In this document: positions 58,417-61,564 of the stretch, piece after piece
How positions within the stretch are numbered: the stretch's first letter is position 1
Layout of the letters: each line of letters opens with the position of its first letter
IMG/VR virus record: IMGVR_UViG_3300009551_000045
Coordinates: 19,450-83,449 of that record
DNA from: a virus
Lineage: Duplodnaviria > Heunggongvirae > Uroviricota > Caudoviricetes
Length of the DNA: 64,000 bases
Direction: 5' to 3' (one strand)
Translations under genes and position numbers: made by a program
Notes under the pieces: model-generated
The model's database searches: none
Told to the model about the DNA's origin: nothing
What the model saw: the letters and a program-made list of their open reading frames with translations, nothing else

Positions 58417-58467
58417 ATGAGAAAAATATTAATGGGTTGTTGTGTTTTTATTGTTAAAAAGTGACAA

Positions 58468-58495
58468 GCCTGGGGTGTCTACCTCGGGCTTTTTA
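58468..58495 (+). terminator. intrinsic terminator closing the plus-strand early block
   Basis: gccugggg / ccucgggc form an 8-bp stem (two G-U pairs) with loop ugucua, followed by UUUUU. Confidence 0.55.
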
Positions 58496-58985
58496 CTGTA
58501 AAATGAATAAAAGGTACTGTAAAAGTGATACAAGATGTGCAATATAATGCATATTTTGATATAAAAATAAGGGAAACATAGCAAAATGCAATAGAAAGTG
58601 TATTATATTGCATATTTCAATGAAAAAATTTGTATGGAAATGCATATAATTTGTTGAATATTTCCAAATTTATATTGAATTGCATATAGTAGGGGAGGTA
58701 TTTTTGAAAAGAAACAAGGCCGGGTCTCGAGTAATTCGGGAAAATTACACTCGGAAGGGTATAAAATGAGGGAAGAAGTATATCTGATCGTGTATAGATA
58801 ACGGTTAGAGATAGACGAATATATATGTATATATTGAGGTTTAAGGTGAAAATGGGGTACACTTCCTTCCAGGGTCCGACCCCCCGACCCCGCTAGTATC
58901 CTGCTCTAGCTACAAAAACCACAGTCTCGATTGACAATCAATACGTTATCATATCGACCTCACAATAATAGTGGTGTAAATACTT

Positions 58986-59024
58986 TAACAGAGTTGTAAC
59001 AAAGTCTTTAACAAAATACTAACA
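58986..59024. repeat. four phased TAACA iterons (11-12 bp spacing)
   Basis: TAACA at 58986, 58997, 59009 and 59020. Further TAACA copies at 59114, 59150, 59161, and several more around 59830-59950. Confidence 0.4.
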
Positions 59025-59185
59025 AATTTATTTGGAGGGTAAGCTGGCCGGTTGTACTTTTGTATTGTTAACCCGAAACCAATATGCCCATAGTGGATAT
59101 AGTGGGTGAATTTTAACAATACTTTATTACTTCATCCCTGGTATCGGTTTAACACATTTTTAACATTAAAAACACATAATTGTAT

Positions 59186-59717
59186 GCAAGCAACAATTAA
59201 AATCTACGAAAAGCGTAAGCAAACGCGTAAGGACGAACAGGGTGTACCACACACGTCTATTGCAATGCGCACGATTGACACACTGACTTATACGGTAGCG
59301 GATGAGTTACCCATTGGTAAGAAGTTAGCCCGGCTTAATCACTTCGCGGCCAATGCCATTGGAGCACGTTACAAGGCTATACTAGGTGCTGGTAAGAAGT
59401 TGGGGTCCAAAATATTCTTCGCCATCGCCATAGACGGCAAGGTCTATTCGAGCGAGTCATCGATGTTACGTGCCAACATGACCAACCTTGTAACGGTTAG
59501 CCGTAAGGACGTAGCGGACAAGGATGGCAACCCATTGGACGGCAAGGTCATTATTGCTAATGTGGCATCTATCCAGACCGTTGCCATTAAGCAGTCTATT
59601 AGCTACCTTGCTGATCTTGCCAGGATTGCTAAGGAGGCGGATACCTTTGAGGGCGAAGCAGTCAAGGCAGGTGCTATGCTCGTCGGTATCGAAGGTGATA
59701 TTGTTTCGGAGGTTTAA
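59186..59717 (+). CDS. compositionally distinct Gly/Ala/Lys-rich protein
   Basis: The ORF track gives 59106..59717, but the likely start is MQATIKIYEKRK at 59186. By eye it is far more GC-rich, with many GCG/CGC/GGC codons, unlike the rest of the window. Confidence 0.5.
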
Positions 59718-59720
59718 CAG

Positions 59721-59784
59721 GTGACCCCCGTTGACCCCTTGCAAATAAAGGGGTGTGAAGGTTGGACTTTCACGGGGGGTCCAC
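59721..59784 (+). ncRNA. nested multi-hairpin structure just 3' of the preceding ORF
   Basis: Outer stem gugacccccgu / acggggggucc enclosing two hairpins (ccccuu-gcaaau-aagggg and gugaag-guuggac-uuucac). Confidence 0.3.
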
Positions 59785-60699
59785 TACAGGCCAAGGGGTC
59801 AGGTTCCAGTATCCGCTCTTTAACATATTTTTAACTTCGCTGTCCATAAAGCGTATGGGGTCCGATCTAGTCGGGTAATGGTGACTCTCCCATTTTTCAG
59901 CAAGCGATTTTAACAGTATGTTAACAGGGTCCGCTCTTTAACATAGCTTTAACGTATGTCAGTCCTCAAAGTAGCTAGTAAGACAGCCAGCTAATTAGAC
60001 AGAGTAATACGGCTTATGCCCCTCAGATTGTTGCATAAGCTCATTACAGACCAATAGATAGACTCTGAACGCTAGGTAATGGGTTATGACACTTTAAAGT
60101 AATAATGTCTTAAATAGCCTGTAATAGGCTTATAACACTATTCAACGGCATAGCTTACTGTTCTGGTAAGTGAAAAGTTCCCAAATCAATACAAATTAAA
60201 TAGCTATTGTGATACTTGGATTTTAGTAAAGTGATAGTTTGAGTATGGAGAGTAGGAACCTGAAAGGGTGATAGAGGTTAGATTTAGGATTCCCGATGCC
60301 TGTAAGTTCCGAATTACGTGAACCTAAAGGATCAATAAGCCATGAAGTTTTATATGTTTTGGCGAACTAGGGTACTAGAAAAACATATGTAAGCGGGTCC
60401 CCCTTCGCTGATAAGATTGTGAATAATCTTTAATAAAGGGCTGCAATAGAAAATTAGTATTATTACCTTATACATCCAGATTTATCGTTTGTATAGGGCT
60501 CATATTTGATTTAAACGCCATCAAAGTAATACTGACAGAGTAAATGCAGAACATGAAACCATAACAAGGGGTTTTATTCCTTGTTTTTTTATAAGCTGCG
60601 TAAAGCGGCAGGGTCGGACGTGCTAACGGATTCACAAGGGTGATAGCCGTGCATGGGATGCATAGTGTTCCCTAAGCACTCAATTAAATTCAAACAATC

Positions 60700-60849
60700 A
60701 TGAATCAGACAGCTATCCAATGTGCGAAGGATGGAATTTATTATCTCAACCTGGAAGAACTTAAAGAGGTAATGAAGTATATAAAGGAACGTAAAGCTCT
60801 ATTGGAGGAAAGGAAAGCATTAGAAAAGAAATTACAATCAGCCAAATAA
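60700..60849 (+). CDS. small ORF (49 aa, predicted coiled coil)
   Basis: Hand-translated MNQTAIQCAKDGIYYLNLEELKEVMKYIKERKALLEERKALEKKLQSAK. Confidence 0.3.
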   Translation: MNQTAIQCAKDGIYYLNLEELKEVMKYIKERKALLEERKALEKKLQSAK

Positions 60850-60859
60850 AATTAAAGTC

Positions 60860-61024
60860 ATGAGTACTAAAATTGAAAAGGTAGACAAGAAAACTACTAC
60901 TGTAAGCGTATGGTCCAAACGTAGAGGCGTTAACAGGAAGATGGTAGTGGACAAATGGGAAGTAGGTACTAACCATAAGGGTAAGAAGATTTACAAGTCC
61001 CAGACGAAGCATGTAGCTGCGTAA
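60860..61024 (+). CDS. small basic ORF (54 aa)
   Basis: Hand-translated MSTKIEKVDKKTTTVSVWSKRRGVNRKMVVDKWEVGTNHKGKKIYKSQTKHVAA, followed by a terminator. Confidence 0.35.
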   Translation: MSTKIEKVDKKTTTVSVWSKRRGVNRKMVVDKWEVGTNHKGKKIYKSQTKHVAA

Positions 61025-61060
61025 GATATTCGTTTCATAAAACTACGGTTTAAGGTTTGA

Positions 61061-61091
61061 GCTTGGGTGTTTCTACATCCGGGCTTTTTTT
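61061..61091 (+). terminator. intrinsic terminator (GTGT-TCTAC loop family)
   Basis: gcuugggug / cauccgggc stem with wobble pairs, then UUUUUUU. Confidence 0.5.
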
Positions 61092-61139
61092 ATTTGATTG
61101 TTTGAGAAATTATTTGTATTATAGAGGCCATCAAACAAA

Positions 61140-61170
61140 GACCTAAAGTTTCTACTTTGGGTCTATTTTT
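61140..61170 (+). terminator. intrinsic terminator
   Basis: gaccuaaagu / acuuuggguc form a 10-bp stem (one G-U pair) with loop uucu, followed by uauuuuu. Confidence 0.55.
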
Positions 61171-61173
61171 ACA

Positions 61174-61251
61174 TGGGGGTAGAATGGTTGATCACCATAG
61201 ACTGGCAAAGTAGGGTAGCTTCCTAAAGAGGTTCGAATCCTCCGCCTCCAC
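61174..61251 (+). tRNA. tRNA-like element with non-canonical central region
   Basis: 7-bp acceptor stem (ugggggu / gccuccA, with G-U pairs). D-arm auggN7ccau. Perfect T-arm gagg-UUCGAAU-ccuc. Discriminator then a T-run. An 11-nt insert (gacuggcaaag) and a 4-5-bp stem-loop with a 7-nt loop guAGCuu replace a standard anticodon arm. Confidence 0.35.
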
Positions 61252-61564
61252 ATTTTTAAATTGAATTTGTCTTATAATTTGTATTATGTTAAATAGACCA
61301 TAAATAAGTTTATATGTAGGACATAATATTGTAAGTTGTTGATTATCATATGGATATTTTTAATGTGTAAGTAAATGCTTACAGATGGGATGGGTCGAGG
61401 GTCGCATCCCTAGAGGGAAGCAATCCCTAGCGGGTTTCCCTTGTTGGGAAGTTTTCTAAATTGTTATATGACTTTATATGATTTATCGATTATCGATAAA
61501 TTTTTATTGATAATTGAATAATAGACATTTTAATATATACATATATATTCTAAACGGAATTACT

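Follow-up and report, generated by a model that had tools for sequence, protein, structure and literature searches.

What does a GC-elevated stretch with few genes contribute to an otherwise AT-rich phage genome? The question arises at positions 58417-61520 of a 64,000-nucleotide (nt) stretch of the Caudoviricetes record IMGVR_UViG_3300009551_000045 (hereafter the window), an AT-rich phage segment that carries genes for a major head protein, a portal protein, a large terminase and baseplate proteins. A preliminary description of this island had left the choice between a cluster of phage-encoded small RNAs and a horizontally acquired cassette with its own regulatory RNA structures. Our analysis points to a third answer. 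The island is very probably one conserved transcription unit composed of a promoter, an open reading frame (ORF) of 177 amino acids (aa), here called ORF177, and a structured RNA of about 960 nt. That the stretch of about 1 kb behind ORF177 is a functional structured RNA we regard as highly probable: the RNA is conserved, it covaries, it lies on the + strand and it always stands alongside the ORF177 gene. The unit is common to at least 10 related uncultivated myoviruses, which are distant kin of T4-like phages with Bacteroidota as their probable hosts. All coordinates below are those of the window, and features lie on its + strand unless stated otherwise.

The structured RNA downstream of ORF177

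The island first stands out by its composition. Among 64 bins of 1 kb, GC content was highest at 59001-60000 (0.449, the next bins reaching 0.391 and 0.390) over a background of about 0.25-0.35 per bin (about 0.31), and in 200-nt windows it peaked at 0.535 at 59600-59799. ORF177 (59184..59717, GC 0.48) is the only ORF longer than 100 aa in 58417-61520, as had been noticed before, although its ATG lies at 59184 and not at 59186. The GC content at its third codon positions (GC3) is 0.53, which is z=6.1 relative to the 44 other window ORFs of at least 150 aa (mean 0.212, standard deviation 0.052, maximum 0.34), and its codon usage thus looks as foreign in numbers as it had by eye. By both the sliding-GC and the codon-usage profile, the island differs from the neighbouring genes. 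Furthermore, the kilobase described as free of ORFs proved to be so: no ORF of 60 aa or more occurs on either strand at 59745-60700, and the same holds for 59718-60699.

We assign the RNA to 59718..60681 on the basis of synteny, profile links, a covariance model and covariation. On every contig that could be read, the ORF177 homologue has 0.77-1.24 kb free of called genes behind it; gene callers called nothing in the RNA regions of the relatives. In all 10 full-length members, and in the partial locus L005, the RNA is located directly 3' of the ORF177 homologue and on the same strand. Comparison of these downstream regions by blastn yielded four groups: G1 (the window, L004 and L005), G2 (L006 and L012), G3 (L007 and L010) and G4 (L008, L011, L014 and L015). 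The groups have one order of motifs in common, which begins with a three-way junction at the stop codon, continues with AGCAAGUAAG-type and other blocks, a hairpin with the loop GGUACGGGAA, a near-invariant A(A/U)AGAAAAU, two hairpins with conserved loops and an invariant CAGAGUA, and closes with a hairpin followed by a U-run and a terminal element that opens with an invariant ACGUGC.

Sequence profiles connect these groups. In nhmmer searches, the G2 profile matched the window at 60360-60554 (E=2.7e-8), G2 matched G3 at 3e-7, and matches between G3 and G4 went down to 4.5e-23. For the covariance model R1, only 6 members of G2-G4 were used and the window's own lineage, G1, was left out. R1 recovered the held-out loci L014 and L008 (E about 1e-11) and, when searched against the 64-kb window, gave a sole match over the full length of the model, at 60389-60544 on the + strand (33.8 bits, E=2.1e-4).

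The conserved 3' core of the RNA contains a pseudoknot module (60393..60440) in which the loop CCCUU (60401-60405) of the hairpin GCG-GGUCCCCCUU-CGC (60393-60408) forms a helix with AAGGG (60436-60440), immediately before A(A/U)AGAAAAU. The strands are swapped between lineages, with CCCUU/AAGGG in the window and GGGAA/UUCCC in the relatives, and all 5 positions covary across 10 sequences (CG, CG, CG, UA and UA in the window; GC, GC, GC, AU and AU in the others). RNAalifold, applied to a plain MAFFT alignment of six non-window members, returned the pairing of this loop with the segment before AAAGAAAAU unprompted. The pseudoknot is followed by a three-way-junction domain (60446..60542), which comprises A(A/U)AGAAAAU (60446-60454), the helix Px (60454-60464/60525-60535), the hairpins Ha (60470-74/60490-94) and Hb (60505-10/60520-25), and CAGAGUA (60536-60542). 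The three-way fold of 60446-60542 is predicted in most of the 10 members.

Covariation in this core was assessed in several ways. In the plain MAFFT alignment of six non-window members, which is independent of the model, four helices with 17 pairs were 90.2% paired against 70.2% after shuffling (reached in 0/500 shuffles); 11 of these pairs showed compensatory change, and slid controls were 37-56% paired. The 10-sequence alignment derived from the model, which included the pseudoknot that is absent from the model itself, was 89.1% paired against 66.8% after shuffling (again 0/500), with 14/17 pairs compensatory and slid controls at 37-51%. Eight hand-anchored helices were 92-100% paired with compensatory change at 32/39 positions, figures that are somewhat optimistic since these helices were curated and set on conserved flanks or loops. 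G-U pairs place the RNA on the + strand; at pair 72/206, for instance, 5 sequences have U-G. When all groups were aligned by plain MAFFT, RNAalifold gave zero pairs, the helices being out of register, and a single nhmmer profile for all groups also failed; profiles per group, anchored helices and the covariance model were used instead. These results bear out the view that functional RNA structure dominates the stretch and is conserved in related phages. Kissing between the Ha and Hb loops, considered by eye, was dropped as it was inconsistent across members.

In its 5' part, the RNA carries an internal repeat (59807..59953) whose two copies, at 59807-59835 and 59925-59953, have the core YCCGCUCUUUNNCAUA and are both kept in L004 and L005. 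The 16-nt sequence tccgctctttaacata that had been seen twice 118 nt apart, at 59812-59827 and 59930-59945, lies within these 29-nt copies. A third copy of the 29-nt repeat occurs at 59136-59164, in the 5' untranslated region (UTR) just before the ORF177 start codon, and from this arrangement the 29-nt units could be a shared protein-binding site that provides autoregulation or titration. The hairpin reported at 60012-60040 is present as well (z=-2.6), but its stem has 9 bp rather than 8 and spans 60011-60041. At 60105-60106, the strain variants L001 and L003 have CG in place of the window's AT, and this CG matches the RNA of L004 (GACGGUC) at that place.

No described family matches this RNA. 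No Rfam family reached its gathering score in the whole window or in the 10 loci, and a search of 58300-61700 at E up to 10 produced chance-level matches only. Full-text searching of the literature found no description of it. DNA similarity searches of 50,697 phage records, in near and distant modes, returned 0 matches to the window, and scans of IMG/VR, the JGI metagenome set and GTDB genomes with the protein, with protein alignments and with conserved DNA blocks returned no true relatives; the RNA/ORF177 family was seen in ENA and Logan assemblies only. Pattern matches designated L016-L022 turned out to be chance matches inside ordinary protein genes. The possibility that ORF177 is an exon interrupted by an intron was also dropped, as the downstream ORFs are not homologous between lineages. 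Judged by its sequence and predicted folds, the RNA appears to be a new family within the known kind of large phage RNAs, outside the GOLLD and ROOL families.

Boundaries of the RNA and its flanking features

Directly after the ORF177 stop codon lies a three-way junction (59720..59785) formed by P1 (59720-29/59775-85), P2 (59734-40/59748-54) and P3 (59755-62/59766-73). The nested three-stem element of the preliminary description indeed folds in this way, with a minimum free energy of -35.3 kcal/mol (z=-3.1 against shuffles), and of its 20 predicted pairs 7 are compensatory between the window and L004/L005. A three-way junction marks the ORF/RNA boundary in both G1 and G2. At the same position, G4 has a hammerhead motif, with the ORF stop codon in or beside stem I. 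It consists of stem I, CUGAYGA, stem II, GAAA, stem III and UC, with cleavage predicted before UUAGGA, and is located at 3590-3660 in L008, 1402-1480 in L011, 827-876 in L014 and about 1160-1240 in L015. L008, L011 and L014 passed a test of stems I-III; L015 has the core and failed the test of stem III. The Rfam Hammerhead_1 model aligned all core positions on L014, with 20.7 bits (E=0.0056) against a cut-off of 34 bits. Neither a permissive Rfam search nor a test for the core revealed a hammerhead core or any other known ribozyme in the window, G2 or G3, and permissive Rfam searches of the window junction and of the G3 5' element gave chance-level matches only. The junction strands of the window (GUUG, 0-1 nt and 0-1 nt) hold none of the catalytic core nucleotides.

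Near its 3' end, the RNA has the hairpin T1 (AACAAGG/CCUUGUU), followed by a U-run (60563..60590), which is kept and covaries in all members and precedes the terminal element. From its sequence, T1 could serve as an intrinsic terminator that ends the RNA, or its role could be structural. A triple helix between the U-run of T1 and the A-rich AAAGAAAAU was considered by eye and dropped, because its lone C/G match is explained by stem covariation. The terminal element itself (60619..60681) is Y-shaped and tRNA-like: it starts with the invariant ACGUGC, is closed by the stem GUGCU/AGCAC and has two further arms, a middle and a third one, and it folds alike in most members. The third arm of G3 and G4 is a canonical T-arm with the loop UUCGAGU or UUCGAAC, and the acceptor-like and T stems add up to 11-12 bp, as in tRNA. 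The closing stem and the third arm covary, and arms that read UCAC/GUGA and GGGA/UCCC in the window read UCCA/UGGA and GGGG/CUCC in L004.

Beyond the Y element, the window has two small ORFs (60700..61024), of 49 aa (60700-60849) and 54 aa (60860-61024), both absent from L004. In G4, the Y element is followed, after about 15-20 nt, by an unrelated small hydrophobic ORF of about 50 aa (about 4590-4740 in L008, 2350-2500 in L011 and 1800-1950 in L014). Next come two terminator-like hairpins with T-runs (61059..61171), at 61059-61092 and 61139-61171, which have the sequence GTTTCTAC...TTTTTA in common. They correspond to the tandem terminators described earlier and were retrieved by the pattern scan at 61059-61086 and 61139-61164; other terminator-like sites on the + strand were 58466-58491, 60563-60585 and 61426-61448, and 6 sites were found against 2.5 expected. 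The hairpins at 58466-58491, 61059-61086 and 61139-61164, as well as those downstream in L008, L011 and L014, share a loop G(T)TTCTAC or TATTCTTAC, and they appear to form a phage-wide terminator family with a conserved loop. In G3 and G4, GUUUCUAC is also the loop of a hairpin close to where the RNA begins.

The tRNA-like element at 61175..61250 does have a 7-bp acceptor stem (TGGGGGT/GCCTCCA, with 2 G-U pairs) and a T-arm (GAGG-TTCGAAT-CCTC), as had been remarked, but it lacks a canonical D or anticodon arm and is not a tRNA. ARAGORN found 0 tRNAs in the whole window, and its tmRNA and intron modes, suggested for this region, yielded no more than a poor pseudo-tRNA call, which required -ps90, a 2-nt "intron" and mismatched arms. 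In Rfam the element scored 18.1 bits (E=4.4) against a gathering score of 47 bits, and its fold is no stabler than that of shuffled sequences (z=-0.06). Its features would suit either a decayed tRNA gene or a processing signal. Further downstream, three short hairpins (61387..61450), the last of which is terminator-like (61426-61448), make up the stem-loop cluster reported at 61385-61450; the stems exist, but they are indistinguishable from chance (z=-1.1). L004 ends before both 61175-61250 and 61387-61450, and no diverged comparator covers either. L001 covers both but is 99.4% identical to the window, which makes it an uninformative comparator.

ORF177 itself is a basic protein (isoelectric point [pI] 9.3; 10.0 for the first 150 aa) with an acidic C-terminal tail. 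All members of its family share these properties, with pI values of 9.1-9.7, or 9.7-10.2 for the first 150 residues, and an acidic tail. A single-sequence search recovered 3 homologues at 63-67% identity and a profile search 12 more at 39-46%. Among 1.84 billion representative proteins searched with HMMER, only 15 clusters matched ORF177, and 14 of these are proteins of 162-207 aa. No match was found in Pfam, PHROG or PDB sequences. By these comparisons, ORF177 is a real but orphan protein. The gene contains exact 12-nt repeats at 59315/59390 and 59433/59538 (TGGTAAGAAGTT, GACGGCAAGGTC), whose translation repeats the peptides GKKL and DGKV and which hint at an internal duplication of the protein. 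Genes with an endonuclease VII domain lie near upstream of the unit in the G2 relatives (L006 1595-2359, L012 156-422, L013 156-614), and they are possibly homing-type endonucleases in a plastic region.

The upstream region begins with a terminator-like hairpin and T-run (58466..58496), found by the pattern scan, which closes the upstream block of small genes and forms the left border of the unit; its loop, GTCTAC, is similar to those of the hairpins at 61059 and 61139. An AT-rich stretch follows (58522..58688, no strand assigned, GC about 0.25), which has 47-nt and 23-nt direct repeats that each end in TGCATAT(A/T) and is not kept in L004. Next is an 18-nt near-palindromic TATA element, AATATATATGTATATATT (58818..58835, no strand assigned). 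Its exact reverse complement stands at 61532..61549 (likewise without strand), 16 nt upstream of the ATG of the next gene (61565), and these two copies, the sole perfect ones in 64 kb, bracket the island. We dropped the idea that this near-palindrome is a general promoter of the T4 late type, as there are only two perfect copies in 64 kb. A TATA-rich element occurs 345-418 nt before the ORF177 ATG in every relative with enough upstream DNA. The blocks GGGTCCGACCCCCCGACCCC ... ACAAAAACC ... TTGACAATCAATACGTTATCA (58872..58951) come next, in an order common to the other groups as judged from blastn blocks and side-by-side sequences. In all groups, the architecture 5' of ORF177 consists of the TATA-rich element, a C-rich block (GGTCYGACCCCCC...ACAAAAACC), TTGACWATCAA...GTTATCA, tandem boxes and then a promoter of the Bacteroidota type.

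In the window, these boxes are four helically phased TAACA boxes (58984..59024), namely TTTAACA at 58984, TGTAACA at 58995, TTTAACA at 59007 and ACTAACA at 59018, directly upstream of the -33 element. The TAACA iterons noted before are thus present, with a spacing of 11-12 nt, but they have a precise place, just upstream of a host-type promoter. The heptamer TTTAACA is concentrated here: 9/28 of its occurrences in 64 kb fall in 58984-59943, all on the + strand. From their arrangement, the boxes could be protein-binding sites, either for a regulator or as part of an origin. The putative promoter (59031..59062) has a -33 TTTG, a 20-nt spacer and the -7 element TACTTTTG, and fits the Bacteroidota sigma-A pattern that we tested (-33 TTTG, a spacer of about 19-21 nt, -7 TAnnTTTG). 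The window contains 8 occurrences of its motif where 2.4 are expected, a count that 0/100 shuffles reach, and 8/10 lineages have a relaxed form in the corresponding position, upstream of the ORF and on the + strand. Further copies of the form TTTG-N18-21-TAnnTTTG lie at 25118-25149 (-), 48221-48252 (-) and 48768-48799 (+), and two of the window's motifs share TTTGGTAATNTAAGATA...ATATCTTTG.

Transcription would start near 59068. The predicted 5' UTR (59063..59183) contains TTTAACA at 59112 and a pair at 59148/59159, 11 nt apart and just before the ATG, which is kept in L004 and L005. The pattern scan revealed no terminator-like site at 59063-60562 and no further Bacteroidota-type promoter at 59063-61938, in both cases on the + strand. 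The closest terminases to that of the window are those of Flavobacterium phage vB_FspM_immuto (41.7% aa identity) and Microcystis phage Mel-JY01. Because of the promoter motif and this terminase relationship, the data suggest a Bacteroidota host.

Perfect DnaA boxes (TTATCCACA) are found in the non-coding DNA upstream of the ORF177 homologue in every G2-G4 relative, with 1-3 copies each that are often in tandem 11 nt apart (L006 4435; L007 3305 and 3316; L008 2789; L010 2711; L011 593 and 604; L012 861; L014 5, 65 and 76; L015 375). They lie further upstream than the TAACA boxes of the window, and G2 has in addition a TTAACA pair that abuts the -33 element. G1 (the window and L004) has phased TTAACA boxes just upstream of the promoter and no perfect DnaA box, and a consensus search revealed no DnaA box in the window island. 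By their sequence and position, the DnaA boxes of G2-G4 may reflect either DnaA-dependent regulation by the host or an origin.

Alternative explanations and the proposed transcription unit

Both earlier readings fit part of these data. If the kilobase were a cluster of independent small RNAs and regulatory hairpins (tRNA-like, small regulatory or anti-defence RNAs) with promoters and terminators of their own, its many separate hairpins, the separate tRNA-like element at 61175-61250 and the local range of the demonstrated pairings, all within about 150 nt, would be expected, and the hairpin/U-run at 60563-60590 could split the Y element from the rest. However, the modules keep their order over about 1 kb in four diverged groups, there is neither a terminator-like site nor an extra promoter in the intervals given above, no Rfam small-RNA family matched and ARAGORN reported no tRNA. 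The ORF-free kilobase reads as one collinear RNA of about 960 nt, with the same module order in 10 diverged relatives, and a cluster of small RNAs is highly improbable. Still slimmer are the chances of a horizontally acquired or mobile cassette from a donor of higher GC, bounded by inverted repeats. Such an origin would account for the GC3 of ORF177, for an island that is the GC maximum of the window, for the 18-nt inverted pair 58818-58835/61532-61549 that brackets it and for the endonuclease VII-like genes nearby in L006 and L012. Yet the elevated composition recurs in most diverged homologues: the GC3 of ORF177 homologues is 0.49-0.67 in 9/11 loci, in phages that are themselves 33-40% GC, and the GC of the RNA is raised in most lineages, G2 being barely above its flanks (ORF GC3 0.42 in L006 and 0.38 in L012). 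Furthermore, the G1 relative L004 has the same Band_7 gene upstream as the window. High GC and GC3 in most homologues, together with the retained Band_7 gene, indicate that the trait is old and inherited and not recently foreign. The unit is present in all relatives, where the TATA near-palindrome is single and upstream only despite 1.7-2.6 kb of downstream sequence; no transposase, integrase or recombinase was found in the island, and no donor sequence in any collection searched. Foreign-looking GC can thus mark structured-RNA loci rather than horizontal transfer. The major head protein gene ranks 4th in GC3 (0.30), and the GC3 of ORF177 may therefore be the extreme of an expression-linked axis, or may result from constraints at the RNA level.

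Two other explanations start from the sequences around the RNA. One takes about 58520-59062 as a phage replication origin, with an AT/TATA unwinding element and phased initiator boxes in which TAACA would be the iteron, and with transcription serving for activation or priming. It can cite the four direct boxes 11-12 bp apart with the TATA element about 150 bp upstream of them (the conserved TATA-rich element precedes the boxes by 100-250 bp), the AT-rich stretch, and the DnaA boxes of every G2-G4 relative, a perfect 9-mer being expected about once per 131 kb. A basic character and an acidic tail, as in ORF177, are also seen in some DNA-binding replication proteins. We consider this origin unlikely: the window island has no DnaA box, the boxes abut a canonical host-type promoter in the usual place of an activator or repressor, no replication initiator homologue was recognised, the GC-skew profile has nothing specific here, and 1 kb of covarying RNA with pseudoknots would be left unexplained. 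An origin is nevertheless compatible with our explanation of the RNA itself. The other takes the kilobase as a long structured 3' UTR that acts in cis only, on the stability or regulation of the ORF177 mRNA or as a leader for the downstream small ORFs. In line with this, no terminator separates the RNA from ORF177, with which it would be co-transcribed, the two internal 29-nt copies resemble the ORF177 translation-initiation region, hinting at shared protein binding or autoregulation, and the small ORFs begin about 20 nt after the Y element. We judge it very unlikely, because the G4 hammerhead between ORF and RNA, complete in 3/4 members, would be predicted to sever the RNA from the mRNA; moreover, the small ORFs lack conservation from group to group and L004 has none of them, a long distance separates the conserved 3' core from both coding regions, and the size, pseudoknots and invariant loops exceed those of any known bacterial cis-regulatory element.

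We therefore return to a single transcription unit, which would work as follows. The host-type promoter at 59031-59062, behind the four phased TAACA boxes, would start a transcript that first encodes ORF177, a small, basic and probably abundant protein. With no terminator in between, the transcript would run on into the RNA at 59718-60681, whose predicted anatomy comprises the 5' three-way junction, at least one pseudoknot, multi-stem domains with conserved loops, the hairpin/U-run and the tRNA-like Y element. We infer that the RNA is cut from the mRNA at the 5' junction, in G4 by self-cleavage of the hammerhead, which would leave a 5'-OH, and that its 3' end arises when transcription terminates at the hairpin/U-run, when RNase P or RNase Z processes the Y element, or through both. 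What results would be a stable, trans-acting RNA with a role during infection; it could function by itself, as a folded or multimeric particle in the manner of GOLLD and ROOL, or together with ORF177 in a ribonucleoprotein. The flanking terminators, the 61175-61250 element and the 61387-61450 hairpins are then ordinary punctuation or decay products around the unit.

Our confidence is moderate that the RNA is processed as proposed and low for its biochemical role. Several points weigh against this account of the unit. Transcript ends, processing and abundance are all deduced; 5' cleavage in this phage is unsupported, as the hammerhead core is missing from the window, whose Y element (60619-60681) is also without a canonical T-loop. 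The comparison covers about 10 family members in four lineage groups, and within G1 only two lineages; the helix analysis was hand-anchored in part, and the 5' two-thirds of the RNA align poorly between groups. Since searches of IMG/VR, the JGI metagenome set and GTDB genomes did not recover the family, its breadth and host are uncertain, and the tie between ORF177 and the RNA is one of adjacency only. A bolder extension, which we think quite unlikely, would make the RNA the core of a new phage machine, in which this large RNA would be catalytic or build a cage in partnership with ORF177. In this view, self-cleaving modules that can substitute for one another would generate the 5' end, the core-less junction of the window and the G2 and G3 elements being new ribozyme classes that replace the G4 hammerhead, and the Y element would recruit host tRNA-processing enzymes to complete the particle.

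Comparison with known systems

The 5' boundary is best compared with the type I hammerhead (RF00163). The window element is likewise a three-way junction, placed at the ORF/RNA boundary with a closing stem that includes or abuts the stop codon, and the G4 copies have the core CUGAYGA/GAAA/UC with stems II and III that vary compensatorily (L015 failing for stem III). Unlike the hammerhead, the window junction has no core, and the G4 copies score below the Rfam cut-off, their cleavage being predicted from sequence. The same boundary is thus a hammerhead in one lineage and other three-way junctions elsewhere, which constitutes a natural experiment.

At the 3' boundary, the closest parallel is MALAT1/mascRNA, in which a tRNA-like module at the 3' end is processed by RNase P or RNase Z. 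Here too, a long RNA is followed by a mimic of an acceptor stem and T-arm, which in G4 has stems totalling 12 bp and a UUCGAGU T-loop. By analogy, the Y element could recruit tRNA-processing enzymes to set the 3' end. In contrast to MALAT1, however, the setting is a bacterial virus, a hairpin/U-run precedes the module and the window copy has no canonical T-loop. T4-like phages have a region of tRNA and stable-RNA genes, and the present locus resembles it as an ORF-poor, RNA-rich segment among early or small genes of a T4-related myovirus, with a tRNA-like remnant at 61175-61250. It differs in having no functional tRNA and a 1-kb RNA as its main product.

Very few bacterial or phage RNAs are both longer than about 500 nt and intricately folded; beyond rRNA, group II introns, GOLLD, ROOL and OLE there are hardly any, and each of these is biochemically remarkable (PMC5737381, PMC12286853). 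OLE, a large ornate RNA of about 600 nt, has dedicated protein partners (PMC12054373) and offers a precedent for an association between the RNA and ORF177, although OLE is found in cells of Bacillota and not in phages, the sequences do not match and ORF177 has no recognisable family. GOLLD and ROOL are phage and prophage RNAs that often lie near tRNAs; ROOL averages 581 nt and many GOLLD RNAs exceed 800 nt (PMC12286853, PMC5737381). Like them, the RNA described here is large (about 960 nt), multi-junction, pseudoknotted and phage-encoded, and tRNA-like elements lie at its end or next to it. In GOLLD, the 3' region is conserved and the 5' region variable (PMC12286853, PMC5737381), and similarly only the 3' third of the present RNA aligns between lineage groups. 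Unlike both families, it matches no Rfam model at E up to 10, it occurs in phages of presumed Bacteroidota, and it always directly follows one specific protein gene. ROOL has no known protein partner (PMC12286853), whereas a conserved basic protein is obligatorily adjacent to this RNA. Its boundaries also differ from those of GOLLD and ROOL, with a ribozyme or junction at the 5' end (a hammerhead in one lineage) and a tRNA mimic at the 3' end; a cage or multimer form is conjectural here.

Annotation pipelines leave this whole gene blank, as no gene caller, Rfam model or tRNA finder reports it. A new class of RNAs of 0.8-1.25 kb would be a strong candidate for new RNA biochemistry or for a new RNA-protein assembly. 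What sets it apart from the large RNAs described so far is its different presumed host phylum, the one orphan protein with which it is always paired, the ribozyme that frames it in some lineages and the tRNA mimic that frames it in all.

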